Assembly (NCBI GenBank): GCA_045617725.1
Contig: JAZLJD010000054.1
Location: 645-64,644 of the forward strand
Reading direction: 5' to 3'
DNA length: 64,000 nucleotides
Origin: Lachnospiraceae bacterium
Lineage (GTDB): Bacteria; Bacillota; Clostridia; Lachnospirales; Lachnospiraceae
The notes below the pieces were generated by a model. That model saw only the letters and a program-made list of their open reading frames with translations, did not search any database and had not been told where the DNA came from. Position numbers and translations under genes: made by a program. Below are positions 3,275 to 44,465 of this stretch, one piece after another. The first letter of the stretch is position 1; each line of letters opens with the position of its first letter.

Positions 3275-5257
3275 ATGAGATTTAGAAAGACAGGATTTGT
3301 TTTGGCACTGTTATTTTTGTGCCTGTTTTTAGGGATGGAGTCCCAAAATGTGTGGGCGGAGTCTGTGTGCCATACGCACACGGGGGATGCGGTTCACGGT
3401 GGCGGATGCTATACGAAGGATGTGCTGTGCGGGGGCAGTCCGGAAGCCTATAAAGTCCCGCATGACTGTGGAACCAGGGCCTTGGCGACGTATGCGTATG
3501 ATGAGAATACCTATGAGGGCAATACACCCGGGACGGCACCCGTGGGTGTGTGCCCTTCCTGCGGCAGCCATTATTACAGGCGCTGGTATTACGGCTACAG
3601 CCACGTTTGCGATGCACAGCGGGGACAGGTTAGTGTAGGGGCATACTATGCCTGCAAGGACTGCGGGTATTCGACGCTTTCGGGTGGTACCTATGCGGGC
3701 GGTACGATCAATCCGCTCTACTATACCTGTAGCAATCGCTACTATACGGAGGCGTATCGCTGCTCTAAGTGCCATAAGGAGTGCACACAGGCGGATTATA
3801 AGGCCGGAAGGAAATGCGGGGAGCATGTGGAATATGCCGTGAACTGTGGGTACTCGGATGGAGAATTGCTGGTTGACATAACTATAAATGAGGCTCCGAC
3901 TGAGCCTGTTAATCACGACGTGGAACTGAAGGTTTTTATGAAGGGCAAGCCGGAGGTTATGAATACCGCGGCCATTAAGTGGCAGGACGGCAGTACGGCC
4001 GCGACCTTCAGCGCGCCAGAGAACGGGACGTATTCCTGCTCGGTTACGGTCAGCGACTGCGGGCAGCTCAAAACGGTTTCCTTAAGCACGACGGTCGGCT
4101 GCATTGACAAGGAACCGCCGGTTGTCACGCTTTTGACGGACGCGGATCTGAGCACCTGGTACGAGGGCAGCATCTGCCTTTACGGGGAGGCGCATGATAC
4201 GGGCCTGGGCCTCCCCGAGGAGCCCTATTCGTTTGACGGTGGGGTGACCTTTGTAAGCGAGGGCAAGCTTTTGGTGGATAAAAGCGGTACGTATGAAGTG
4301 CTTGTGAAAGACCGGGCCGGCAATACCACGGCGGCATCCCTGACCGTGACGATGGCTGTGAAGCCGGCCCCGAAGACTCCGGACCCCCTGCCGTCCGAAA
4401 TACCCACGGTGGCTCCGGCGCCTTCGACCGCTCCGGCACCTTCCGTGCAGGCGACTCCCACTCTATCCGGAGGGACTACGCCGCCGTCCTCGGGAACGCC
4501 CGGTTCCGTAGGACCGGCAGGGAACAGCTCCGTATCTCAAGGAGCAGCAGGGGGCGACTCCGGGGCGGCCCCGACCGTGCCCGCTTCCGCGGCACCGAAG
4601 AGTGAAGGAACGCCTGCTCCGACTGTCCCGTCCCCTAAGGCGGAACCGACCCCTAAGGCCGATACCTCCATAAAGAAGGTTACCAAACTGACTACGACCT
4701 CCGAGCTTCTCTCGGAAGCTTTGGACGACGGGTATAGGATTCCGTACTATCTTTCCGAGGAGAACACGGATGCATTGTTCCAAACCGTTCTGACGCAGAA
4801 TGCGGAGCCGCCCCTTTCTCCGTCCGTATCTCCCTCAGCGAGTGCTTCCGTCCTTTACGAAGGAGTTTTTGATGCACAGGTAGTAGAAGTACAGGACGAG
4901 ACCATTCTGGGACTTGGGTATAAACAGCGCATGATTCTTTTTGGCACCCTGGTACTGGTGATACTGGGAGGAATGATTTACGGCAAGCAGTACGTGGAGA
5001 GGCTGCTGGGCGTGCGGATGAAAGGCAATGACGGTGAGTACCACTACATCGCACACATTCCGGTGATGAAGCATCGGGGACGTCTGCAGGTATATCTGAG
5101 GCCGGCACTCATTGAGAAGATTGACAGGGCACAGGTCAGACTGCATTTTTCAGAGCGTTTTATGAAGAAGAACCAGGGGCATAAGTTGCTTGTTTTATGG
5201 CAGGAGGGACAGCTCAGTATGCAGGTGGAACAGGATGTAATCTTGCATCTTACTTAA
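3275..5257 (+). CDS. Cys-rich exported single-pass membrane protein of unknown function
   Basis: ATG 3275 is preceded by the aaaggag RBS. Signal peptide MRFRKTGFVLALLFLCLFLGMESQNVWA. 15 Cys in about 165 residues, including CPSC, CKDC and CSKC. A beta-rich region, a P/A/S/T-rich stalk, the TM helix MILFGTLVLVILGGMIYG, and a cytoplasmic tail of about 110 aa. Confidence 0.7.
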   Translation: MRFRKTGFVLALLFLCLFLGMESQNVWAESVCHTHTGDAVHGGGCYTKDVLCGGSPEAYKVPHDCGTRALATYAYDENTYEGNTPGTAPVGVCPSCGSHYYRRWYYGYSHVCDAQRGQVSVGAYYACKDCGYSTLSGGTYAGGTINPLYYTCSNRYYTEAYRCSKCHKECTQADYKAGRKCGEHVEYAVNCGYSDGELLVDITINEAPTEPVNHDVELKVFMKGKPEVMNTAAIKWQDGSTAATFSAPENGTYSCSVTVSDCGQLKTVSLSTTVGCIDKEPPVVTLLTDADLSTWYEGSICLYGEAHDTGLGLPEEPYSFDGGVTFVSEGKLLVDKSGTYEVLVKDRAGNTTAASLTVTMAVKPAPKTPDPLPSEIPTVAPAPSTAPAPSVQATPTLSGGTTPPSSGTPGSVGPAGNSSVSQGAAGGDSGAAPTVPASAAPKSEGTPAPTVPSPKAEPTPKADTSIKKVTKLTTTSELLSEALDDGYRIPYYLSEENTDALFQTVLTQNAEPPLSPSVSPSASASVLYEGVFDAQVVEVQDETILGLGYKQRMILFGTLVLVILGGMIYGKQYVERLLGVRMKGNDGEYHYIAHIPVMKHRGRLQVYLRPALIEKIDRAQVRLHFSERFMKKNQGHKLLVLWQEGQLSMQVEQDVILHLT

Positions 5258-32869: not shown

Positions 32870-32983
32870 CTGGCGACATCGGGCGGCTGTGGGAACTGGG
32901 GGCTGGCGACATCGGGCGGCTGTAGGAGCTGTGGGGCTGGCGACATCGGGCGGCTGTAGGAACTGTGGGGCTGGCGACATCGA
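32870..32983. repeat. Tandem repeat, 33-34-bp unit, about 3.4 copies, each carrying GACATCGGG
   Basis: Units start at 32870, 32903, 32937 and 32971 (ctggcgacatcgggcggctgt[g/a]gga[a/g]ctg[t]gggg). Confidence 0.9.
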
Positions 32984-33244: not shown

Positions 33245-33946
33245 CTATAGATTATGAAGCAGGCGATATTTCAATTCTGCCAATATCCAATCGGTTTCGT
33301 TGTCGATGTCCTGGACTTCTGTTTCATCAAGTTCAATCGTCTTCATGTGTTCCATGAAAAATTTATGAGAGAGCCGAAAAGCCTCCACATGCAGGCAGTA
33401 GAATTGGCCACTGTCGTGGTACATGGGTTCTAAATCCTGCGTGCGTGTCATCATGTATTCGGGTTGCTTCATAACAGTGTAGCCATCCTTTATGATGAAA
33501 CCGCGCTGTGGCGGGAAAGAGAATCGAACGACGGGAACAACGCTGTCGACGGGAGCTTCGTTAGTAGAATCTTCCAAGAGTGCAACTGCTTCTTTTAGGC
33601 GCTCGGCGGTAATGAAAGGCGCAGTAGGATAGATGCAGACCGCAGTATCAAAGTCGTTGCCTTGTTCTTTATAGGCATTCAGAACCTCGGATACAACATC
33701 AATCGTAGTAGCGAAATCTCCGGAATTTCCCTCGCTTCGCAAAAAAGGAACTGTAGCACCGTAGTCTTTGGCGACCGAAGCAATCTCGTCACTGTCCGTG
33801 GAAACCATGACGGTGTCGAAAAGGCCGGAGTCAAGGGCGACCTTTATGGAATAAGCAAGGATAGGCTGGCCCAGGAAAGGGCGAATGTTCTTTTTGGGGA
33901 TGCGTTTGCTGCCGCCGCGGGCAGGAATGATGGCAATTCTCTTCAT
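33245..33946 (-). CDS. CMP-nonulosonic-acid-type cytidylyltransferase (NeuA/PseF family)
   Basis: 233 aa. MKRIAIIPARGGSKRIPKKNI...ILAYSI...VSTDSDEIA...PFLRS...YPTAPF pattern. Confidence 0.75.
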   Translation of the reverse strand: MKRIAIIPARGGSKRIPKKNIRPFLGQPILAYSIKVALDSGLFDTVMVSTDSDEIASVAKDYGATVPFLRSEGNSGDFATTIDVVSEVLNAYKEQGNDFDTAVCIYPTAPFITAERLKEAVALLEDSTNEAPVDSVVPVVRFSFPPQRGFIIKDGYTVMKQPEYMMTRTQDLEPMYHDSGQFYCLHVEAFRLSHKFFMEHMKTIELDETEVQDIDNETDWILAELKYRLLHNL

Positions 33947-34024: not shown

Positions 34025-34132
34025 GTGAGGCGGGCAGAGGAGGGGGGAGGCCGGCGAGGGTGAGGGTTGCGGGGAGGCGGCGAGGAAGAGGGGGGCGCCG
34101 GCGAGGGCGAGGGGTGAAGGGTGAAGGGGGGA
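34025..34132. repeat. G-rich low-complexity tract (many G3-G6 runs, GGCGAGG-like units) in a divergent promoter region
   Basis: gaggcgggcagaggaggggggaggccggcgagggtgagggttgcggggaggcggcgaggaagaggggggcgccggcgagggcgaggggtgaagggtgaagggggg. Confidence 0.8.
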
Positions 34133-34217
34133 TACGTGATTTACGAAATAGGGCGTAAGGGGTATAATGAAGATGGCGTGGCAAGGGCCACAGACGAAGA
34201 GAACGGGAGGTATGGCG

Positions 34218-35021
34218 ATGAGCGAGGAACGGCCTGTAATAAAGGAAGAATGTGTGGATATGGTCTATGATGGGCGGTTTGTGCGGGTCATGGATTTGAA
34301 GTATGCGAAGGGGTGTCATTATCTGGATGCGACGCGGCGTACGAAGGAGAACATCGTGGCAATTAAGAGCGACGAAGAGTTTCGTGTGATGCTGCCGGAT
34401 GCGGTTACCTGCTTCGTGATTGTGAAGATTGGCGATGAAGAACGACTGTTATTAAATTATGAATATCGATATCCGGCGGGAAGATTCCTGCTGAGTCCGG
34501 TTGCGGGACTGATTGACCCGGAGGACTACGAGGTTGCCGGTGGGGCAGGTGCGAGCACGGCTGAAAATGAGAGTGCGCAGGCGGTAGAAGATGAGAGCGT
34601 ACAGGCGGCTGAGAATGTGTGCGCGCAGGCGGCAGACAGTATGAGTTCTGCGGAATATCGGCGTGAGCAGGCGCTTTTGGGCGCTGCGAGAAGGGAAATT
34701 AAGGAGGAGACCGGTATCACGGTCAGCGAATCGGACAAGCTGTTTGTAGTGAGCGCGTTTACGTTCTCTACGCCCGGTATGACCGATGAAAGCAACGCCC
34801 TTGTCTGCGCCGTAATCACGCTACCGGATGTTTCCATACTGAATCATGACGGAGCAGTGGGCTCGGAGTGCTTTAAAGGGTTTGAACTCCTTTCGAAGGA
34901 CGAAGCCCGGAAGCTGCTCACGGCGGGCTGCGACAAAAACGGATTTTTCTATTCGCTGCACACGTATTGTGCACTTATGTACTTTGTCAATGATATGTGG
35001 AAACAGGGGGGATTGGTATGA
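34218..35021 (+). CDS. Nudix hydrolase (ADP-ribose-pyrophosphatase-like) with a low-complexity insertion in the Nudix box
   Basis: GLIDPED...[about 45-aa insert]...AARREIKEETGI. Start chosen at ATG 34218 (GGGAGG 7 nt upstream); ATG 34212 and ATG 34167 are alternatives. Confidence 0.7.
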   Translation: MSEERPVIKEECVDMVYDGRFVRVMDLKYAKGCHYLDATRRTKENIVAIKSDEEFRVMLPDAVTCFVIVKIGDEERLLLNYEYRYPAGRFLLSPVAGLIDPEDYEVAGGAGASTAENESAQAVEDESVQAAENVCAQAADSMSSAEYRREQALLGAARREIKEETGITVSESDKLFVVSAFTFSTPGMTDESNALVCAVITLPDVSILNHDGAVGSECFKGFELLSKDEARKLLTAGCDKNGFFYSLHTYCALMYFVNDMWKQGGLV

Positions 35022-35821
35022 TCAGAACGATTGAAATCAGTACGATTGAAGATGTGTTGCCGCTCATTACGGAGCAGGAGTTTCGACCGGATTTGAACCG
35101 TAATCGAAGCCTGTACCTCTATCGCGGGATGACGGACGTGAACTTCCGCCTGGAAACCAGCTTAAGCCGTAATTGCAAGGGGGCCAAAAAGGAACTCGAG
35201 CCGTGCATTCTTATGAATTTTACGAAGTACGGTGCACTTGAGGATCCGACCATTGAAAAGAGCGTCTGGAGGCAGATGTTCATGGGACAGCACCACGGAC
35301 TGCCCACGAGACTTCTGGACTGGTCGCATTCCCCGCTCATTGCCCTGCACTTTGCGACCTCGGAGCATGACCTTGATCAGATGGATATGCATGACTGCAT
35401 GATCTGGCGTATCGATATGAAGGAACTGCATGCGATGCTTCCCAAGAAATATAAGGATGTGCTTGAGAAGAATCAGACTTCCGTTTTCTCGGTAAACATG
35501 CTGAATGAAGTAACCGGAAGCATAGACGAGTACGATTCGGATATGGAGGACAAGTCCATGGTTGTCATTGAGCCGCCTTCCATCGATCCGAGAATCGTTA
35601 ATCAGTATTCGTTTTTTTCCATTATTCCGGATGCAATTGATAATCTGGAGGATTTCTTCGATAAGAATACGAATAATACGGTCAAGTATGTAATAAAGAA
35701 GGAACTGAGATGGCGTATTCGCGATATGCTTGACCAGCAGAATGTGTCGGAACGTATGGTTTACGGCGGATTGGATGGTCTGTGCAAGTGGCTCGGCCGA
35801 CATTATTATGTAGTTGATTAA
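35018..35821 (+). CDS. FRG-domain protein
   Basis: LYLYRGM (the Y/F-RG motif) and HHGLPTRLLDWSHSPLIALHFA. ATG 35018 overlaps the Nudix TGA (ATGA). Confidence 0.8.
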   Translation: MIRTIEISTIEDVLPLITEQEFRPDLNRNRSLYLYRGMTDVNFRLETSLSRNCKGAKKELEPCILMNFTKYGALEDPTIEKSVWRQMFMGQHHGLPTRLLDWSHSPLIALHFATSEHDLDQMDMHDCMIWRIDMKELHAMLPKKYKDVLEKNQTSVFSVNMLNEVTGSIDEYDSDMEDKSMVVIEPPSIDPRIVNQYSFFSIIPDAIDNLEDFFDKNTNNTVKYVIKKELRWRIRDMLDQQNVSERMVYGGLDGLCKWLGRHYYVVD

Positions 35822-35905
35822 GTTATACTTGCCATGTAAAGTGGGTGTAAATTATAATATTTATGTTACAGGAATGTAATAATATTATATTTGGAGGGAT
35901 ATTTG

Positions 35906-36862
35906 ATGAAGAAGAGAATTTTGTCACTTGTACTTGCTCTATGCATGGTAGCGACCATGTTTGGAGGAATGAGCCTTACGGCTAAGGCTGAGCCGGGCAT
36001 GATTCCGGTTGGCTGGGAAGGCAACTGGGACCTGTTCTTATCAAAAACGTCGTCGCATATAGGAGGATCAGGCGAGAACTATGAATTTCCGGCCCCCGGA
36101 ACGATTCTTCACCCCGGCGATGAGATGAAGATGGCGGTGATGCTTTTTATGAAGCAGGAGTATACGATAAGTGGTTTAAGTACTGATGAGTATCGTTATT
36201 CTGTGCAGGAATTGATGACGCAGCCTGTTATGCAGGTGGTTATGGCAGCGGAGTCATCTGAAGGCAGAATTACACCGGAAGCAAAACAGATAATTGAGCA
36301 ATCGATGTTCGGAATGAGTATGAATACCAAAAACATGCGCGGAACGCCGGAGGATATAGCGGAAAGTAAAGCCCGTAGCCGGGAAAGTGCGCAGGAATTG
36401 GGTATAGTCTTCGATTTTGACACCATACTTTCTGCTGTAGAAGGCTATACTGCATGGAAAATTTTGTGTTACGCCAGTGAGGGCATTTGTATAGCCATTC
36501 CCTACAGTGAATCGAAAGATTGCGCTTTGGTACAGAGCGGTAACGGATTTAAGTGGTACGATCACAACGGAAATCTCGCATGGAATGTAGAGGAAACCGA
36601 AGCTACCATTACGGCTGATTTTACAAATCAGTGTGCGCTTCCCGCAAGTCTTGTGGAAGAGTTCAATGCAGCCGACAAGGATATAAAAGTAAGCTATGAG
36701 TATCGCGGATACACGGTAACTGCAGAAATCCCTGCAGGCAAGCTGGCTGTAACCGGAGAGAAATGGTATGGTGCCGCTTACTTTGCTTTTGTCAACAGAG
36801 AGTATGTAACCGTCAAGAATTGGTTTGGCCAGGAAGTCGATATTGAAGTTTTGTTTAAATAA
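35906..36862 (+). CDS. Secreted protein of unknown function, paralog 2
   Basis: ggaggg RBS. Signal peptide MKKRILSLVLALCMVATMFGGMSLTAKA. Shared C-terminal block DKDIKVSYEYRGYTVTAEIPAGK...WYGAAYFAFVNREYVTVKNWFGQEVDIEVLFK. Confidence 0.7.
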   Translation: MKKRILSLVLALCMVATMFGGMSLTAKAEPGMIPVGWEGNWDLFLSKTSSHIGGSGENYEFPAPGTILHPGDEMKMAVMLFMKQEYTISGLSTDEYRYSVQELMTQPVMQVVMAAESSEGRITPEAKQIIEQSMFGMSMNTKNMRGTPEDIAESKARSRESAQELGIVFDFDTILSAVEGYTAWKILCYASEGICIAIPYSESKDCALVQSGNGFKWYDHNGNLAWNVEETEATITADFTNQCALPASLVEEFNAADKDIKVSYEYRGYTVTAEIPAGKLAVTGEKWYGAAYFAFVNREYVTVKNWFGQEVDIEVLFK

Positions 36863-36912
36863 TACTTACGGCAATATTCCTTGTGGAATTCTTATCGACG
36901 GGATATAATTGT

Positions 36913-36946
36913 GGCGTCTGCAGGTGGTCTGCAGGCGTCATTTTTT
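36913..36946 (+). terminator. Rho-independent terminator after paralog 2
   Basis: ggcgtctgcag / ctgcaggcgtc stem (two G-U pairs) followed by tttttt. Confidence 0.65.
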
Positions 36947-36967
36947 CTATAAAGGAGAGAGTAAGAA

Positions 36968-37903
36968 ATGAAGAAAAAAGTATTGGCACTTGCACTTGCA
37001 ATGTGCATGATGGTTACCGCAATTGGCAACTACGGAGTTTCGGTTAAGGCTGAAGTATACGTGGTAGACCCTGTTGGACCTGTTGGAATTGAAGAGTGGA
37101 TTCTTTGGGAAGGCAACTGGGCTACGTGTGCAGATGAGTATGCCTTGTATTATGCAACCGACGGAGAACCTATTCCGGGACAGGTAGTAAATCCCGGAGA
37201 TGCGCTTCCATATGAAGCTGTATTTCTTACAAAGGATATTTCACTTGCAGGACTTGCAACCAATAAGTGCAATTATATGGTGCAGGAAGCATCAGAATTT
37301 ATGAGTGTTTTTAGCAAGATAAACGTGGCTATTTATGGTGGAATTATAAATGATGCAAAAGGCATTCTTGCAGGATATGCTGCACGGGATTCCTACTTTG
37401 ATGAGTATGATTACATTACGGAACTTCGAGATAGCGGTATTACTTTGACGGAAAAGACCGTAATTCCTGCACTTAACGGCTATACCGGTTGGAAATGTCT
37501 ATGCTGGACGGAACGGTTTGATATATATGTTCCCTATGGTGAAGTTTCACAGGGCTGCTTCTTAACAAAAGCAGAGAGTGGTGTCGGAATGCAGTGGTAT
37601 GATGAGAAGGGTAACCTTGTTATGGATATTCAGGAAAATGAGGACTCCATTAACGCTAATTTCACCAACCAGTGTGCACTGTCTGCAGATCTTATAAAGA
37701 ACTTTAATGAAGCTGATAAGGATATTTTAGTATCCTATATGCACAAGGGCCTTTTTGTAAGTGCAGATATCCCGGCGGGCGAGTTGGCACAAACGAATGA
37801 TGAGTGGCAGGGCGCTGAGCGTTTTGCAGATCTTAACAGAGGATTTATTACGGTTAAGAATGTATATGGCCAGGAAGTCGATATTGATGAATTATTCAAA
37901 TAA
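36968..37903 (+). CDS. Secreted protein of unknown function, paralog 3
   Basis: Signal peptide MKKKVLALALAMCMMVTAIGNYGVSVKA. Shared C-terminal block DKDILVSYMHKGLFVSADIPAGE...WQGAERFADLNRGFITVKNVYGQEVDIDELFK. Confidence 0.7.
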   Translation: MKKKVLALALAMCMMVTAIGNYGVSVKAEVYVVDPVGPVGIEEWILWEGNWATCADEYALYYATDGEPIPGQVVNPGDALPYEAVFLTKDISLAGLATNKCNYMVQEASEFMSVFSKINVAIYGGIINDAKGILAGYAARDSYFDEYDYITELRDSGITLTEKTVIPALNGYTGWKCLCWTERFDIYVPYGEVSQGCFLTKAESGVGMQWYDEKGNLVMDIQENEDSINANFTNQCALSADLIKNFNEADKDILVSYMHKGLFVSADIPAGELAQTNDEWQGAERFADLNRGFITVKNVYGQEVDIDELFK

Positions 37904-37918
37904 AAGCAAGGTGTAACT

Positions 37919-38179
37919 TCAATGGGGACGGGGGCTTCTATCACATTAAAGCACTAAAGTAAGGGGGCTCCGGCGCGGGATTCAGAACAGGTTCCGGCGC
38001 GTTTTCCGTCGTTTGAAAACAGAATATTTGAAGAAAAAGCGTCTGATAACGAGCCGGGCATTGGTCCGGGATACGAAATCAGACGCTTTTTTAGCACGCG
38101 CCGGAGACTATCGCGGGGCACGCGCCGGGGCCCCCTTACTTTAGTGCTTTAATGTGATAGAAGCCCCCGTCCCCATTGA
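37919..38179. repeat. 261-bp non-coding palindromic element (59-bp inverted arms, 143-bp spacer with an internal terminator-like hairpin)
   Basis: Left arm 37919-37977 and right arm 38121-38179 are reverse complements with 1 mismatch in 59. Inner repeats ttccggcgcg/cgcgccggag. Central hairpin aaaaagcgtctgat...atcagacgctttttt. Confidence 0.9.
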
Positions 38180-38221
38180 TAAAAGTGGGGAAATCGGATA
38201 AAATCACTTTGGGCAGATAAC

Positions 38222-38429
38222 ATGGATGTTCCGTATAACGGAGTTGATAAGGAAATGACGCATGCGGAATATGTAAATTCATGGCTTAATTATTTGTTAC
38301 ATTATACGGATATACCGGAGATTGGAAAGGTGTATTTTGCGGCGGTGAACCGTGAAGTATGTAACGGTGAAGGATTGGTTCAATCAGGAAGTCAGCATAG
38401 AAGTGCTTTTAATTAAGCGGAGGACAAAA
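38222..38429 (+). pseudogene. Decayed 3' remnant of a fourth member of the secreted-protein family
   Basis: ...VYFAAVNRE, then a +1 frameshift, then YVTVKDWFNQEVSIEVLL aligns to the C-termini of paralogs 1-3. The N-terminal roughly 250 codons are missing, the stop is lost, and the frame runs into the ABC ATPase start. Confidence 0.55.
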
Positions 38430-39530
38430 ATGAAAGTAGTACTTAAAAATTTAACGAAGAGATTCCCGAATCGGAATCCGAAGGTGCACGAGGATGTAAT
38501 CGCAGTCAACGATTTTACATTCGAAATTCCGGATGGGCAGCTGATTGGTCTGCTTGGACCGTCCGGCTGCGGAAAGAGCACCACACTGAACATGATATCA
38601 GGACTTGAGAAGCCCACAAGCGGGCAGATCTTTTTTGGCGACAATGACGTAACAAAGCTGCCACCCGAGCACAGAGGCGTGGGACTTGTTTTCCAGAACT
38701 ACGCACTTTACCCGCATCTGACCGTACGGCAGAATATCATCTTTCCCCTTGAGAACCGCAAGGGCAAGGACAAGCTGTCCAAGGATGAGATGAACCGCCT
38801 GGCGTATGAGACGGCACGCCTTGTGCAGATTGAGGAATATATGGACCGCAAGCCGAGTGAGCTATCAGGTGGTCAGCAACAGCGTGTTGCCATTGCCAGA
38901 GCCCTTGTTAAGACGCCGGATGTGCTGCTCCTGGATGAGCCGTTGTCGAACCTCGATGCAAGACTGAGACTCCAGACCCGTGAGGAAATCCGCCGTATCC
39001 AGAGGGAAACCGGAATTACGACCATCTTTGTAACGCACGATCAGGAAGAGGCCATGAGTATTTCGGACCTGATTATCGTCATGAAGGAGGGCTGCCTGCA
39101 GCAGATCGGTAAGCCGCAGGAGGTTTACAACAATCCCGTGAACCTGTTCGTTGCGCAGTTTTTGGGAACCCCGGCCATCAATGTGTTTGAGGGAAGCGTG
39201 AAAGAGGGAGCCCTTTATTTGGGCGATGAGGCGGTACTTTCGGTACCGGGTGCCAAAGAGGGCCCTGTTACCGTGGGAATCCGTCCGGAAGGCTTTGTTC
39301 CTTCCGAAAGCGGTGCACTTACCTGCGAGCTTTCCCGAGTGGAGATTATGGGACGCGATACCAGCGTGATTTCAAACCATCCCAAATGCAAGACCGGCGT
39401 GATTCGGTCCATTGTAAGTTCGGACTTTGCCATCACTACGGCCGAAAAATACGTGAAATTTGACTTAAAACCGCACAAGGTGCTCCTGTTTGATACAAAA
39501 ACCGGCGAGCGGATTCTTTTTGGCAACTAA
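38430..39530 (+). CDS. ABC transporter ATP-binding protein, MalK/UgpC/MsmK type
   Basis: Walker A GPSGCGKST, signature LSGGQQQRV, Walker B LLLDEP, plus a C-terminal regulatory-type domain. gcggagg RBS. Confidence 0.9.
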   Translation: MKVVLKNLTKRFPNRNPKVHEDVIAVNDFTFEIPDGQLIGLLGPSGCGKSTTLNMISGLEKPTSGQIFFGDNDVTKLPPEHRGVGLVFQNYALYPHLTVRQNIIFPLENRKGKDKLSKDEMNRLAYETARLVQIEEYMDRKPSELSGGQQQRVAIARALVKTPDVLLLDEPLSNLDARLRLQTREEIRRIQRETGITTIFVTHDQEEAMSISDLIIVMKEGCLQQIGKPQEVYNNPVNLFVAQFLGTPAINVFEGSVKEGALYLGDEAVLSVPGAKEGPVTVGIRPEGFVPSESGALTCELSRVEIMGRDTSVISNHPKCKTGVIRSIVSSDFAITTAEKYVKFDLKPHKVLLFDTKTGERILFGN

Positions 39531-39544
39531 GGTGGAGGCTCTTT

Positions 39545-40435
39545 ATGAACAACAATAAATTAAAGGGCTGGCTTTACCTGCTCCCTGCGATTCTGTTTCT
39601 GGGATTTTTCATGGTGTATCCGCTTGTGGATGTCCTTGTTTATTCCTTTGAGGAAGGGTACAATTTCGCCTCGCAGAGCTATACGGGAACCGGCTTTTTC
39701 AACTATTCCTACGTGCTTCACGATCCCTACTTCCTGCAGGCCGTGAAGAATACTTTCATCATTGTTATTATTACGGTGCCCCTGTCGACGGGGCTGGCAC
39801 TGCTTATTTCGCTGGCGCTTAACTCGATTAAGCCCTTAAAGGAGCTGTTCCAGACCATTTATTTCCTGCCGTATGTAACCAATACCCTGGCGGTCGGCCT
39901 TGTATTCATGGTGCTCTTTAAGAAGACGGCATATTCCGACGGCCTCATAAATCTTGTGATTAACTTTTTCGGCTCACCCTCCATCGATTTCATCGAGGGA
40001 CCCTACTGGGCCAAAATGTTCGTGATGTGCACCTACACCATCTGGATTGTACTTCCGTTTAAGATTCTGATTCTGACGAGTGCACTTGCAAGCGTTAAGC
40101 AGGATTATTATAATGCGGCACGCGTGGATGGCACCGGCAAGTGGCGCATCTTCCGAAAGATTACGTTGCCCATGATTTCGCCCATGATTTTTTACCTGGT
40201 CATTACGGGCTTTATCGGCGCGTTCAAGGCGTACTCGGACGAGGTCGCCATCTTCGGAACGAACCTGAACACGGCGGGTATGAATACCATCGTCGGCTAT
40301 GTGTATGACATGCTGTACGGCAGCAGCGGCGGCTATCCGTCCTATGCTTCGGCGGCAGCCATCATACTTTTTGTCATCGTATTCACAATCACCTGCATTA
40401 ACCTGCTAATCAGCAGGAAAAATGTACAGTACTAG
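39545..40435 (+). CDS. ABC sugar-type permease (MalF/UgpA-like)
   Basis: Six TM helices and EAA loop AARVDGTGKWRIFRKITLP. Confidence 0.85.
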   Translation: MNNNKLKGWLYLLPAILFLGFFMVYPLVDVLVYSFEEGYNFASQSYTGTGFFNYSYVLHDPYFLQAVKNTFIIVIITVPLSTGLALLISLALNSIKPLKELFQTIYFLPYVTNTLAVGLVFMVLFKKTAYSDGLINLVINFFGSPSIDFIEGPYWAKMFVMCTYTIWIVLPFKILILTSALASVKQDYYNAARVDGTGKWRIFRKITLPMISPMIFYLVITGFIGAFKAYSDEVAIFGTNLNTAGMNTIVGYVYDMLYGSSGGYPSYASAAAIILFVIVFTITCINLLISRKNVQY

Positions 40436-40446
40436 GAGGTGGTTAA

Positions 40447-41319
40447 GTGAAACAGACAGATTATGAATTAATTGAAAAAAAGGACGCCGTTCGCAGACGT
40501 ATCCTCAAGGTTGTGACCTATGTGTTCCTTGCGGTCTGTGCACTGTTTGTCCTGTTCCCGTTCTACTGGATGCTCCTTACAAGTATCAAGGGCTACAGTG
40601 CGTACAATGCGGAGTATGTTCCGAAGTTTTACACGCTTCAGCCGACCTTTGAGAACTACGTATCCGCTTTCACGGCGGTTTCCCTCGGAAAATATTTCCT
40701 GAATACCTTCATTTTTACGATGGTGACCACGGCGATTATGCTGGTCGTAACCGTACTGGCGGCATTTGCTTTTGCCCGCCTTGAGTTCCGCGGAAAGAAC
40801 CTGTGCTTCACGATTTTCCTGTCGCTCATGATGATTCCGACCGAGCTCGTTGTCATTACGAACTTTGTTACCATCACAAACTGGGGCATGCGAAACACGT
40901 TCATGGGCCTGATTCTTCCCAGCGTGACGAGTGTCTTCTATATTTATCTCCTCAAGGAGAATTTCGAGCAGGTTCCCGACGAGCTTTACAAGGCGGCCAA
41001 GGTGGATGGCACGAGCGACCTCAAGTATCTTCTGAAGGTCCTGGTTCCCATATGCAAGCCGACCATCGTAACCATCCTGATTCTGAAGGTGATTGAGTGC
41101 TGGAATTCCTACGTATGGCCTCGCCTCATTACGGATGACGAGAACTATTTCCTCGTAAGCAACGGAATTCAGACCATTCGCGAGAGCGGTTTCGGCCGTG
41201 AGAACATCCCGGCGATGATGGCAGCAGTTGTGGTCATCTCGATTCCTCTGATTATACTGTTCCTTTTGTTCCATAAGAAGATTATGGAAGGCGTTTCGAG
41301 AGGAGGTACCAAGGGATGA
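40447..41319 (+). CDS. ABC sugar-type permease (MalG/UgpE-like)
   Basis: GTG start after ggagg. EAA loop AAKVDGTSDLKYLLKVLVP. Confidence 0.85.
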   Translation: MKQTDYELIEKKDAVRRRILKVVTYVFLAVCALFVLFPFYWMLLTSIKGYSAYNAEYVPKFYTLQPTFENYVSAFTAVSLGKYFLNTFIFTMVTTAIMLVVTVLAAFAFARLEFRGKNLCFTIFLSLMMIPTELVVITNFVTITNWGMRNTFMGLILPSVTSVFYIYLLKENFEQVPDELYKAAKVDGTSDLKYLLKVLVPICKPTIVTILILKVIECWNSYVWPRLITDDENYFLVSNGIQTIRESGFGRENIPAMMAAVVVISIPLIILFLLFHKKIMEGVSRGGTKG

Positions 41320-42926
41320 TGAAGCAATTTAAGAAGGCTCTGGTCCTTGTTTTTGGCGTCCTGTGTGTGCTGGCTCTGACGGCCTGCCATGGCAATAAAA
41401 CCAAGGTCGCATTCGAGGTGCCCGAAAGCTTTGATACGGAGACTCCGATTGAGATTACCTTCTGGGCCAAAAACGATACGAACCTCGCTCAGGTGGCTGT
41501 CTATAACCGGGCGGTTGAGGAATTTCAGAAGCTCTATCCGAACGTGACGGTGACGCTTAGACTTTATACGGACTACACAAGACTTTACAATGATGTTATT
41601 ACGAATATTTCGACGAATACGACGCCCAATGTGTGCATTACCTATCCCGACCATGTGGCTACGTATTTAACCGGTGCAGAAACGGTCGTGGCGCTCGACG
41701 AACTGCTTATGGACGAGCGATTCGGCCTGGGCGGAACGGAAGTGCCCTTTGAGGCACCTGCGTTTTCCGAAATGGTGCCCAAGTTCTTAGAGGAAGGAAA
41801 GCTGGGCGGGCATTATTATGCGATGCCCTTCATGCGTTCGACGGAGGCCTGCTACGTGAACAAGACCTACGTGGAGAAGCTTGGATATACGCTCCCTGAG
41901 GTTCTGACATGGGACTTCATCTGGGAGGTTTCCGATGCGGCGATGGCCAAAGACGATGACGGCGTATTCACGGTAAACGGCCAGCAGGTCATGATTCCGT
42001 TCATCTATAAGTCCACCGACAATATGATGATTCAATATCTTGAGCAGTGCGGTGCGGATTATTCCACCGGATACGGCGACATTCTTATGTTTAACGATAC
42101 GACGACGGATTTCCTTAAGGAGATAGCGGAGCATGTTAAGAAAGGTTCCTTCTCCACCTTTAAGATTTCCTCGTATCCCGCGAATTTCCTAAATGCCGGC
42201 CAGTGTATTTTTGCCATTGATTCGACCGCAGGTGCAACCTGGATGGGACCGAAGGCTCCGCTTGCCGATATCTGCATGGATGATTTTGTGGACTACGAAA
42301 TTGCTGTTTTGCCCATTCCGCAGGTGGATACACAGAACCTTAAGATGATCAGCCAGGGACCGTCGGTATGTCTGTTCAACAAGGAGAATCCGCAGGAAGT
42401 GCTTGCTTCCTGGCTCTTTGTGCAGTACCTTTTGACGAACGACATTCAGATGGGCTATGCGATGACGGAGGGCTACACCCCGGTTACACAAAAGGCCTGG
42501 GATTCCGAGGCGTACAGAGATTATCTTTCGCGCAGCGGAGAGGATAATGATACCTACTATTCCGTCAAGATTGATGCAACGAAGCTGCTGCTTAATCACA
42601 TCGACGAGACCTTCGTAACGCCGGTGTTCAACGGGTCGGCGTCGCTTCGAAATGCGGCCGGACAGGTGATTGAATCGACTACGCTGTCCATCCGCCGGAA
42701 GCAGACCGTGGATGATGCTTACTTTACGAATTTGTACGATGAAATGACGGCGCTTTACCACCTTGATCAGGGTGCGGGCGTGAGCGGAGACCGGGATTTG
42801 GGACCGCTTCCGAAGACGGCAGTTGCGCTGATTTGTGCAGTGGCAGCCCTGTGGATCCTGATGGGCGCGTATGTTCTTTGGCAGTATTTGAGGCAAAAAC
42901 GTAAGGGCAAATCCCACAAAAATTAG
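41316..42926 (+). CDS. Extracellular solute-binding lipoprotein with a C-terminal LPKTA + hydrophobic + basic tail
   Basis: Lipobox LALTAC. Family-1 SBP-like body. C-terminus LGPLPKTAVALICAVAALWILMGAYVLWQYLRQKRKGKSHKN. Confidence 0.8.
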   Translation: MMKQFKKALVLVFGVLCVLALTACHGNKTKVAFEVPESFDTETPIEITFWAKNDTNLAQVAVYNRAVEEFQKLYPNVTVTLRLYTDYTRLYNDVITNISTNTTPNVCITYPDHVATYLTGAETVVALDELLMDERFGLGGTEVPFEAPAFSEMVPKFLEEGKLGGHYYAMPFMRSTEACYVNKTYVEKLGYTLPEVLTWDFIWEVSDAAMAKDDDGVFTVNGQQVMIPFIYKSTDNMMIQYLEQCGADYSTGYGDILMFNDTTTDFLKEIAEHVKKGSFSTFKISSYPANFLNAGQCIFAIDSTAGATWMGPKAPLADICMDDFVDYEIAVLPIPQVDTQNLKMISQGPSVCLFNKENPQEVLASWLFVQYLLTNDIQMGYAMTEGYTPVTQKAWDSEAYRDYLSRSGEDNDTYYSVKIDATKLLLNHIDETFVTPVFNGSASLRNAAGQVIESTTLSIRRKQTVDDAYFTNLYDEMTALYHLDQGAGVSGDRDLGPLPKTAVALICAVAALWILMGAYVLWQYLRQKRKGKSHKN

Positions 42927-42986
42927 CTGATTTTCATCGGAAATATAGGATAATCGAATATTGATTTATTCTTCTTATCAAGTATA

Positions 42987-43036
42987 ATAAACGTGATTTG
43001 GGGTGATAACGCCCTAAAGCACGTTTATTTTTTTCT
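42987..43036 (+). terminator. Candidate terminator after the ABC operon
   Basis: ataaacgtg / cacgtttat stem with a long loop, followed by a T-run. Confidence 0.45.
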
Positions 43037-43058
43037 TTTTCATTAGGAGGAAATTAAA

Positions 43059-44465
43059 ATGAAGAAATTTTTAACACTTGTTCTTGCAGGTGCAATGATT
43101 CTTACCCTTGCAGCCTGTGACAAGAAAGATGAGCAGAATCCTGCTCCGGATGCATCCGCAGAACCGACTGCAACCGCAGAGGCTTCCGCTGCACCTTCCA
43201 TGGCTGAGCTTTCCGCAAAGTCTGAAGGCGTTATGACTTATGATGAGTACCTGGCAGCAGCTGTTGATGCGCCTGTTGTAATCGAGACCTACGTACAGGA
43301 TGCACAGTCCTGGTGGGACAACAAGGCTACCGTTTATACCCAGGATCCCGATGGCGCTTACTTCCTTTACGAGCTGACCTGCTCCGAGGAAGATTATGCA
43401 AAACTGGTTCCCGGCACCAAGATTCGCGTAGAAGGCTTCCGTGCAGAGTGGGCCGGCGAGGTTGAAGTAGCTTCCGGTGCAACCTTTACTTTTGTCGAGG
43501 GAGCTCCTACTTACGTAGCAGAACCCGTTGATGTAACCGCGTTCATCGGAACCGACGAGCTTGAGAAGTACATGAATCAGAAGGTCGTTATGAAGAACGC
43601 AATCATCGAATCCGTAAGCTACAAGGGTGGCGAAGCAGGCGATGATATCTATGTTGATGTTAACTACGGCGGCGAGTATTACAGCCTGTGCCTGGAGTAC
43701 TACTTAAATGGTAGCGATGAGGCATTCTACAACAAGGTTGCTTCCCTTAAAGAGGGAGATATCGTTGATATCGAGGGCTTCCTTTACTGGTATTACGGCA
43801 TGAATACCCACATTACCGCTGTTACCGTTACCGGCAGCGTAAACGACAAGTCCGAGGGCGTAATGAGCTATGCAGAGTATGTTGCAGCAGCTGTTGACGA
43901 GCCCGTAGTAATCGAGACCTATGTACAGGCAGCACAGTCCTGGTGGGACAACAAAGCTACCGTTTATACCCAGGATGCTGAGGGCGGTTACTTCCTTTAT
44001 GAGATGGCTTGCTCCGAAGAAGACTACGCAAAACTGGTTCCCGGTACCAAGATCCGTGTAAACGGTTTCCGTGCTGAGTGGGCCGGCGAGATTGAAGTAG
44101 CTTCCGGTTGCACCTTCGAGTTTGTTGACGGACCTTCCTACATTGCAGTTCCCCGTGATGTAACCTACCTTTTGGACAAGGATGAGCTTGCAAATCACAT
44201 GAACAAGATTGTTTACTTCACCAACATGACCGTTAAGTCCGTAGAGTACAAGGGTGGTCAGCCCGGTGACGATATCTACGTAACCATGACCGCTGAGAAC
44301 GGCAACGATTACGATTTCTGCCTTGAGTACTACTTGAACGGCAATGACGAGAAGCTCTACAACAAGGTCGGCAACTTAGAGGCCGGCACCGTAGCCAATG
44401 TTAAGTGCTTCCTCTACTGGTACAACGGAATGAATCCGCACATTACCGCTGTTGACCTCCAGTAG
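43059..44465 (+). CDS. Lipoprotein of unknown function built from two tandem modules of about 200 aa
   Basis: Lipobox LTLAAC. Module 1 (KSEGVMTYDEYLAAAVDAPVVIETYVQDAQSWWDNKATVYTQD...) is repeated as module 2 (KSEGVMSYAEYVAAAVDEPVVIETYVQAAQSWWDNKATVYTQD...). Confidence 0.75.
   Translation: MKKFLTLVLAGAMILTLAACDKKDEQNPAPDASAEPTATAEASAAPSMAELSAKSEGVMTYDEYLAAAVDAPVVIETYVQDAQSWWDNKATVYTQDPDGAYFLYELTCSEEDYAKLVPGTKIRVEGFRAEWAGEVEVASGATFTFVEGAPTYVAEPVDVTAFIGTDELEKYMNQKVVMKNAIIESVSYKGGEAGDDIYVDVNYGGEYYSLCLEYYLNGSDEAFYNKVASLKEGDIVDIEGFLYWYYGMNTHITAVTVTGSVNDKSEGVMSYAEYVAAAVDEPVVIETYVQAAQSWWDNKATVYTQDAEGGYFLYEMACSEEDYAKLVPGTKIRVNGFRAEWAGEIEVASGCTFEFVDGPSYIAVPRDVTYLLDKDELANHMNKIVYFTNMTVKSVEYKGGQPGDDIYVTMTAENGNDYDFCLEYYLNGNDEKLYNKVGNLEAGTVANVKCFLYWYNGMNPHITAVDLQ

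Follow-up and report, generated by a model that had tools for sequence, protein, structure and literature searches.

We analysed a 64,000-nucleotide stretch of DNA from a Lachnospiraceae bacterium (contig JAZLJD010000054.1, positions 645 to 64,644; hereafter the window), in which a gene for a Nudix hydrolase and a gene for an FRG-domain protein form a tightly packed two-gene unit. Surveys of related loci revealed that the pairing of the two genes is facultative and confined to one lineage. They also uncovered the new point of this analysis, namely that one Nudix family stands beside interchangeable genes of three families (FRG, DUF2971 and TIR), all of which are described as consuming nicotinamide adenine dinucleotide (NAD) or transferring ADP-ribose (PMC12522546, PMC11381338, PMC9503650). 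We tentatively favour the reading that Nudix and FRG are a facultative functional pair, i.e., a NAD-consuming FRG effector with an optional Nudix companion that clears ADP-ribose. A rival reading, in which an insertion hot spot brought the two genes together by chance, falls only slightly behind it.

The Nudix-FRG unit and its two proteins

The list of open reading frames (ORFs) places the Nudix frame at 34167..35021 and the FRG frame at 34997..35821, both on the plus strand. By direct reading, the FRG start codon (ATG, 35018-35020) overlaps the Nudix stop codon (TGA, 35019-35021) in the four letters ATGA, as the first-pass annotation of this DNA had proposed, and a run of G lies 6 nt upstream of the FRG start (35006-35011). 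The Nudix gene most likely starts at ATG 34218, because the source gene call begins there (267 aa, P0121), because GGGAGG lies 7 nt upstream of it, and because the -10 box of a promoter-like site (34140-34168) overlaps ATG 34167, the start of the longer Nudix frame. The features of the unit and its surroundings are as follows.

34140 to 34168, plus strand: promoter-like site (TTTACG, 17 nt, TATAAT) upstream of the Nudix gene, with 10/12 consensus matches
34218 to 35021, plus strand: Nudix hydrolase gene, 267 aa, assigned to the ADP-ribose pyrophosphatase type from Pfam, profile and fold matches
34558 to 34636, plus strand: in-frame 24-bp tandem repeat within the Nudix gene, 3.3 copies, 72% matches (TRF)
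35018 to 35021, plus strand: overlap of the FRG start and the Nudix stop (ATGA), from direct reading
35018 to 35821, plus strand: FRG-domain gene, 267 aa, with a predicted ADP-ribosyltransferase-like fold (Pfam, PADLOC, alignment and structure model)
35829 to 35858, plus strand: promoter-like site for the following gene, which encodes a secreted-protein paralogue; 11/12 matches; the site marks the end of the two-gene unit
38352 to 44465, plus strand: sugar-type ABC transporter operon (ATPase, two permeases, binding protein, duplicated lipoprotein)

Both genes thus sit behind one promoter-like site, in keeping with the paired unit that had been claimed. We found no terminator-like site between the Nudix and FRG genes, nor between FRG and the promoter-like site at 35829-35858. 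The promoter-like sites are consensus matches only, and the region held 5 of them against 3.8 expected from shuffled sequence. A related strain has the same Nudix-FRG junction on one of its DNA contigs (run X1, 34750-35670). A metatranscriptome library (X5) yielded contigs covering 34794-35033 and 35105-35264; the first extends only 16 nt into FRG, which is below the 31 letters needed for an RNA contig to bridge a junction, and carry-over of DNA is possible. We infer that the two genes are co-transcribed. Four-base overlaps of start and stop codons are common in bacterial operons, so the overlap alone does not go beyond chance and it is the recurrence of the pairing that carries the weight.

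Sequence and fold matches assign the Nudix protein to the ADP-ribose pyrophosphatase (ADPRase) type represented by NudF and NUDT5. Its Pfam match scores 24.5 bits against a cut-off of 21.1 and covers the C-terminal half only. A profile search of the PDB with the protein and nine homologues returned 19 matches, of which 17 were ADP-ribose or ADP-sugar pyrophosphatases or NudE (E 2e-5 to 6e-3). The AlphaFold model is of moderate quality (predicted local distance difference test, pLDDT, 69), and nearly all listed top Foldseek matches of this model were NUDT5, NudF, Thermus or Mycobacterium ADPRases or other ADPRases (E 2e-9 to 2e-6; template-modelling score to target 0.53-0.73). The catalytic helix motif REIKEETG is intact at residues 159-166 (REIKEETGI, 159-167), fits the REUxEExGU helix of the Nudix box and has R159, E160, E163 and E164 invariant in a ten-row alignment of homologues; in all family members a loop longer than the canonical one separates G-x5-E from the helix. 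By a script count, 95 of 97 members of the family keep the helix motif, irrespective of which gene is the partner. PADLOC returned no match for the window Nudix or its homologues.

The window Nudix carries an insert of ~40 low-complexity residues between GLIDPED and the Nudix helix, with the 24-bp tandem repeat as its core. This insert is absent from five homologues of 217-230 aa in the ten-row alignment, and the closest relatives have inserts of variable length. In the model, residues 110-140 of the protein have a pLDDT below 50 and the helix (144-165) one of ~92. The first-pass annotation had raised the possibility that the Nudix gene is inactivated, and we rule out inactivation by the insert on these three grounds (i.e., the intact helix, the variable inserts of close relatives and the low-confidence loop). 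We read the insert as a tolerated loop expansion. At two other loci of the family (L174, 1050-4109, and L176), a 1019-aa protein begins with the Nudix domain and continues with GGDEF and EAL domains, a fusion that hints at a link between ADP-ribose-type ligands and cyclic di-GMP signalling.

The FRG protein scores 77.5 bits against PF08867 (cut-off 25) and bears both motifs that had been ascribed to it, (F/Y)RG as YRG at residues 35-37 and GLPTRLLDW at residues 94-102. R36, G37, T97, R98 and D101 are invariant among 60 aligned homologues, S105 and E185 are at least 90% conserved, and H92, R192 and Q196 are conserved as well. The protein matches 14 PADLOC PDC-S15 models (best E 1.1e-45), and one preprint lists PDC-S15 as predictive of phage infectivity. 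The FRG family, whose function is a predicted one, is large (at E <= 1e-3, 8982 representatives, and 7794 relatives among the candidates scored). It is present as a single copy in this genome, and its orthogroup has 50-81% identity and a constant length of ~266 aa across Lachnospiraceae, Oscillospiraceae and Erysipelotrichaceae.

Modelling from the 60-sequence alignment gave a confident FRG structure (pLDDT 96, predicted template-modelling score 0.91). Foldseek of this model against the PDB returned nothing at E <= 1e-3, and its weak top rows were mostly ADP-ribosylating toxins. A second fold search (VIA) had a weak best match at Z 5.3 (8s2m_B, root-mean-square deviation 3.5, 103 aligned). Nearly all of its 50 listed matches belong to the ADP-ribosyltransferase (ART) superfamily, each weak and the rows mutually consistent: an Rhs ART toxin, diphtheria-toxin homologues, Tpt1/KptA (Z 4.9 and 3.6), PltA, pertussis toxin, LT, scabin, DarT, PARP, RES/MbcT and Arr. 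The fold search proposed in the first-pass annotation suggests an ART fold by the consistency of its matches and not by the strength of any one of them. R36, S105 and E185 lie on or after model strands 33-38, 99-103 and 182-184, which come first, midway and late in the fold, and could form an R-S-E-like triad, as judged from strand order and not from residue-level superposition. FRG is predicted to be an ART-superfamily NADase in PMC9503650 and is cited as an ART-like family in PMC12522546 and its preprint, so the earlier description of FRG as a domain of no established function is outdated at the level of prediction.

Neighbours of the Nudix and FRG families

We surveyed loci from three sides, each scan taking the best 80 of 597 FRG, 434 Nudix or 304 DUF2971 matches, a sampling that favours close relatives. 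Among the 80 Nudix-family loci, a DUF2971 gene lies directly downstream on the same strand in 37, mostly after a 7-bp gap. Four loci have FRG no more than 3 kb away (two on contigs that the FRG-side loci include as well), and in one (L147, 2066-5716) a 995-aa protein with TIR and beta-propeller domains begins 9 bp after the Nudix. In all, 42 of the 80 loci carry an adjacent gene of a NAD-using family and none carries two. The Nudix family is therefore repeatedly found beside NAD-using genes, and both genes of the window fit the NAD/ADP-ribose-type chemistry that had been suggested for them, by family, fold and PADLOC matches.

The Nudix-linked DUF2971 protein is conserved, 273 aa long (PF11185, E 6e-8 to 1e-11) and a weak match to PADLOC PDC-S31. 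DUF2971 is placed in the H-Y-E clade of ARTs, similar to DarT and AbiGi (PMC12522546), and a DUF2971 protein with an ART fold, Aristaios, was found experimentally to be a one-gene abortive-infection system (PMC11381338). We rule out that FRG and DUF2971 are divergent orthologues, as an hhalign comparison gave a probability of 0.3%, i.e., no homology. The DUF2971 orthogroup was found in 0 of 50 FRG genomes (positive control 5 of 5) and the FRG orthogroup in 0 of 50 DUF2971 genomes, five of which hold only distant FRGs; this exclusion at the genome level may partly reflect different sub-lineages. Seen from the DUF2971 side, the Nudix lies upstream in 28 of 80 loci.

On the FRG side, 89 distinct loci emerged from two scans, their orthologues being at 37-81% identity (one locus, L016, repeats the contig of L007), and the comparison set held no second genome of the window's genus. 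A tblastn search placed a Nudix of the window's family beside FRG in 7 of the 89. With the window included, the Nudix is upstream on the same strand in four cases (L006, L012 and L024 besides the window), downstream on the same strand in two (L043, L050) and divergent in two (L009, L063). At the upstream junctions the genes overlap by 4 nt in the window and are separated by 3, 2 and 54 bp in L012, L024 and L006. The seven loci span at least three clusters of a quick FRG tree, and adjacency persists while the flanks change.

In a survey that combined gene calls (simple longest-ORF picks; 76 FRG loci, 13 having been dropped where the FRG ORF was lost) with the family searches, a Nudix was the nearest neighbour of FRG in 9 of 76 loci against ~0.7% expected from 7 Nudix genes in this 2.24-Mb genome, a contrast whose significance is overstated since the loci are related to one another. 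Two of these nine neighbours belong to Nudix families unrelated to that of the window. In one (L051, 2615-3810, an Oscillospiraceae-like genome), a 129-aa MutT-like Nudix overlaps the start of the FRG orthologue by 4 nt and itself matches PADLOC PDC-S07 at 1e-43; in the other (L035), the Nudix is divergent from FRG and 331 bp away. L051 is also a case of two PADLOC single-gene candidates (PDC-S07 and PDC-S15) joined in one operon.

In relatives, the Nudix gene belongs to a conserved frame, the other part of which is a sugar-type ABC transporter operon that includes a lipoprotein gene. Of the 80 Nudix loci, 35 have the lipoprotein gene and 31 the binding-protein gene no more than 3 kb from the Nudix, and homologues of the transporter operon flank FRG, Nudix or both in many related loci. 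We thus rule out the accessory-segment location given in the first-pass annotation in its pure form, since the transporter operon and the Nudix are conserved anchors.

Several other features surround the pair in the window. Upstream lies a lone pseudaminic acid cytidylyltransferase gene (33245-33946, minus strand; PseF equivalog, 278 bits), which adjoins the pair and near which we noticed no other pseudaminic-acid genes. The non-coding stretches on either side of this gene contain a 34-bp tandem repeat (32870-32982, 3.4 copies, 95% matches) and G-rich 21-bp and 7-bp repeats (34071-34128), close ahead of the promoter-like site of the Nudix gene. The interval from FRG to the transporter operon (35891-38430) has genes for two paralogous secreted proteins of 323 and 311 aa without a Pfam family, and what is apparently a relic of a third copy, broken by a frameshift, continues into the ABC ATPase ORF at its 5' end. 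In relatives, FRG directly adjoins the transporter genes without these intervening paralogues. The lipoprotein gene of the window (43059-44465) is a tandem duplicate forming a single 468-aa ORF; its counterparts in relatives encode ~225-290 aa, and it matches no Pfam family.

Explanations for the pairing

Under the reading that we tentatively favour, FRG would be a self-sufficient NAD-using enzyme of ART fold (a NADase or an ADP-ribosyl transferase) and probably a one-gene conflict or defence effector. The Nudix, co-expressed with FRG in this lineage, would cleave free ADP-ribose, or a compound closely derived from it, to AMP and ribose 5-phosphate and so remove the product released by basal or triggered FRG activity. 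Its part would be an optional one, to clean up or to set a threshold, and FRG would not depend on it as an antidote. Presumably NAD is the substrate of FRG, ADP-ribose the metabolite that the two proteins share and defence their role. We favour the facultative pair because the ART-fold and ADPRase chemistries match and all three kinds of cargo (i.e., the DUF2971, FRG or TIR gene beside the Nudix) are NAD-linked, because the cargo mostly lies too close behind the Nudix to have a promoter of its own (7, 9, 3 or 2 bp, or a 4-nt overlap), and because two unrelated Nudix families also adjoin FRG. The persistence of the adjacency over several FRG subclades, its excess over expectation, the mutual exclusion of the FRG and DUF2971 orthogroups and the retention of the Nudix catalytic motif speak for the same reading.

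The first-pass annotation had gone further in proposing a small defence or signalling module. The packed unit, the intact Nudix, the NAD/ADP-ribose chemistry and the PDC-S15 match agree with such a module; a general or obligate system and a setting in defence islands do not hold. An extension of the favoured reading is possible, and we regard it as more speculative. In Lachnospiraceae, this one Nudix family may be the constant half of a modular two-gene immune architecture, in which interchangeable NAD-consuming effectors (DUF2971/Aristaios-like, FRG or TIR) are combined with a Nudix that sets the threshold or ends the response by destroying an ADP-ribose-type product; the window would then be the FRG version, with translational coupling.

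Many observations weigh against the favoured reading. On the FRG side, 82 of the 89 loci have no Nudix neighbour of the window's family by tblastn. Among 50 FRG-bearing genomes, 31 have no match to the Nudix family at E <= 1e-15 and 3 have weak partial matches only. The other 16 hold the family strongly, with the Nudix adjacent to FRG in 7 and apart in 9, where it lies on another contig or more than 3 kb away and its flanks hold neither FRG nor DUF2971. With one genome taken per genus of the same family, 9 of 200 genomes have FRG and 8 have the Nudix, and the two occur together in a single genome (G005), on different contigs. Across the phylum, Pfam FRG occurs in 26 of 400 other genomes at 31 loci, and only one of these 31 Bacillota loci has an adjacent Nudix, which is divergent and in a genome of the same family; one further locus lies 3.7 kb from a Nudix. 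The pairing is therefore neither general nor obligate. On the Nudix side, 39 of the 80 loci have neither DUF2971 nor FRG in their flanks (up to 3 kb), one of these being the locus with the TIR gene. DUF2971 lacks an upstream Nudix in 51 of its 80 loci, where the upstream genes are unrelated (one locus was too short to judge), and the Nudix-linked state changes at least 11 times on the DUF2971 tree, at least 6 of these changes being forced by well-supported branches. These many unlinked copies suggest that FRG and DUF2971 function without the Nudix and that linkage is easily lost. The weakness of the ART-fold match of FRG and a literature search that found no experimental work on FRG count on the same side, as does the geometry of the slot, which bears directly on the closest alternative.

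This alternative, that Nudix and FRG are chance neighbours at an insertion hot spot, is a credible one that we hold to be possible without being probable. FRG would be an autonomous cassette placed between the conserved Nudix and the transporter operon, the ATGA overlap would be later drift, and the Nudix would play no part in FRG function. Without exception, the cargo occupies the interval from the Nudix to the lipoprotein or binding-protein genes of the transporter operon, irrespective of which Nudix end points towards that operon. Where the Nudix and lipoprotein genes converge, the cargo is thus downstream of the Nudix; in Butyrivibrio, where both genes run in the same direction, it is upstream. 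The Butyrivibrio slot is empty in three loci (L125, L139, L148; 0-22 bp) and elsewhere holds FRG as a discrete cassette, in one orientation in L043 (2900-3835) and L160 and inverted relative to all flanks in L063; DNA alignment revealed that only the ~820-930-bp FRG segment is inverted or absent. We found no inverted or direct terminal repeats flanking this cassette in L043 and L063, i.e., no transposon-like ends. Between FRG and the convergent lipoprotein gene of L063 there is a hairpin-rich stretch (3836-4002) with 49-nt arms that are 80% complementary and 17-nt arms that are perfectly paired. Slot geometry and cassette polymorphism fit an insertion hot spot equally well.

Further points agree with chance neighbours. 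FRG adjoins the same transporter genes without the Nudix in L002-L005. The overlap itself is created by a C-terminal KQGGLV extension, found in the window Nudix and its nearest homologue (P0122), and other homologues end earlier. Both FRG and the Nudix are widespread without each other, and the pairing is absent outside this lineage. Against chance, each of the three kinds of cargo comes from a family that consumes NAD or transfers ADP-ribosyl groups, with no restriction enzymes or nucleases among them, and the short junctions and unrelated Nudix neighbours noted above weigh the same way. The Nudix-FRG pair also persists in L006, L024 and the window despite a changed transporter side.

A housekeeping pair for NAD/ADP-ribose turnover is improbable. 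FRG would split NAD or act like KptA/Tpt1 (removal of ADP-ribosyl or phosphate groups) and the Nudix would recycle ADP-ribose, possibly in connection with the transporter operon beside them. The good conservation of the FRG orthogroup over three families, its single copy in this genome and the presence of Tpt1/KptA among the fold matches are consistent with such a role. So are its neighbours, which are mostly ordinary genes (including ABC transporters, a tRNA synthetase, RNA polymerase and phosphofructokinase). Only 2 of 125 FRG-flanking proteins have specific PADLOC matches, namely the Nudix of L051 (PDC-S07) and the TIR protein of L054 (ThsB), the remaining matches being to generic ATPase, protease or radical-SAM models; the check for FRG in defence islands thus came out negative. 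At one locus each, FRG adjoins a ribose-phosphate or NAD-related gene, the aldolase gene deoC with a 4-nt overlap (L028, 2342-3001) and nadC for quinolinate phosphoribosyltransferase (L073, 3801-4643). Against housekeeping, the alternative occupant of the slot, DUF2971, has a validated antiphage member (PMC11381338), and some FRG orthologues stand beside TIR, DUF4062, STAND-NTPase or phage portal genes. FRG is also patchy at the genus and phylum levels, and its presence and orientation vary among close relatives.

The gene order would suit a toxin-antitoxin or effector-immunity pair like DarTG, with a toxic FRG and a Nudix antidote that reverses the modification or binds FRG, since an antidote gene that comes first and is translationally coupled is typical of many type II pairs. 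ART toxins with antitoxins that remove ADP-ribose are known (DarT/DarG, NADAR; PMC12522546, PMC11543638). This reading is nonetheless very improbable and in its obligate form fails on the co-occurrence counts above, because 31 of 50 FRG genomes have no Nudix match, 3 have weak ones and 9 of 16 hold the genes apart, adjacency is seen at 7 of 89 loci, and orientation varies to the point of divergent pairs.

Comparison with known systems

The facultative pair that we favour shares features with several described systems. The window FRG resembles PADLOC PDC-S15 in matching 14 of its models, and its orthologues, like PDC-S15, stand alone as one gene in most loci; PDC-S15 is a candidate single gene, whereas the window FRG is in an operon with a Nudix and its orthogroup lies mostly outside defence islands. 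NudF, NUDT5, Ndx4 and Rv1700 are the best profile and fold matches of the window Nudix and share with it an N-terminal domain, the Nudix fold and the conserved REUxEExGU helix. They differ in that identity is only 12-18% in fold alignments and in that the window Nudix has a longer pre-helix loop and the repeat-derived insert. As in DarTG, a predicted ART-fold enzyme is encoded beside an enzyme acting on ADP-ribose. DarG, however, is a macrodomain protein that undoes the ADP-ribosylation of DNA, and its pairing with DarT is obligate, whereas the partner in the window is an ADPRase-type Nudix, predicted to act on a pyrophosphate bond, and its pairing is facultative.

The closest counterpart of the alternative cargo is Aristaios from lactococcal plasmids, a one-gene ART-fold protein in the same size range (~270-316 aa; PMC11381338). 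The DUF2971 orthogroup fills the same slot behind the same Nudix family as FRG does in the window, in 37 of 80 loci and never together with the FRG orthogroup. FRG and DUF2971 have no detectable sequence homology, and the H-Y-E clade of DUF2971 (PMC12522546) and the conserved arginine of FRG point to different proposed catalytic classes. The available text of PMC11381338 describes no Nudix partner for Aristaios. In the literature available to our search we found no description of a Nudix-FRG or Nudix-DUF2971 operon, although gene neighbourhoods relevant to novelty may be tabulated in the supplements of PMC9503650 and PMC12522546. DUF2971 has one validated antiphage member (Aristaios). A Nudix of ADPRase type, found repeatedly before mutually exclusive FRG, DUF2971 or TIR genes, suggests a concrete biochemical scheme in which NAD goes in, an ADP-ribose-type product comes out and the Nudix clears it. 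The same Nudix with an empty slot, with FRG in either orientation or with DUF2971 provides a natural matched control.

The locus also resembles the nucleotide-centred conflict networks that Aravind and co-workers predicted (PMC9503650), in which NAD-consuming TIR, sirtuin and ART domains (including the RES and Frg clades) are host effectors and Nudix, Macro and NADAR domains are degraders of ADP-ribose derivatives. The likeness lies in the combination of NAD-consuming ART or TIR effectors with a Nudix degrader. The available part of that source treats Nudix degraders mainly on the phage side and does not mention a host operon of an ADPRase-type Nudix with interchangeable FRG, DUF2971 and TIR genes. 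If the Nudix does not modulate these effectors, gut Lachnospiraceae offer here a clean example of a hot spot for the insertion of single genes; if it does, host-side Nudix enzymes would be regulators of NAD-based immunity and not phage counter-measures alone.

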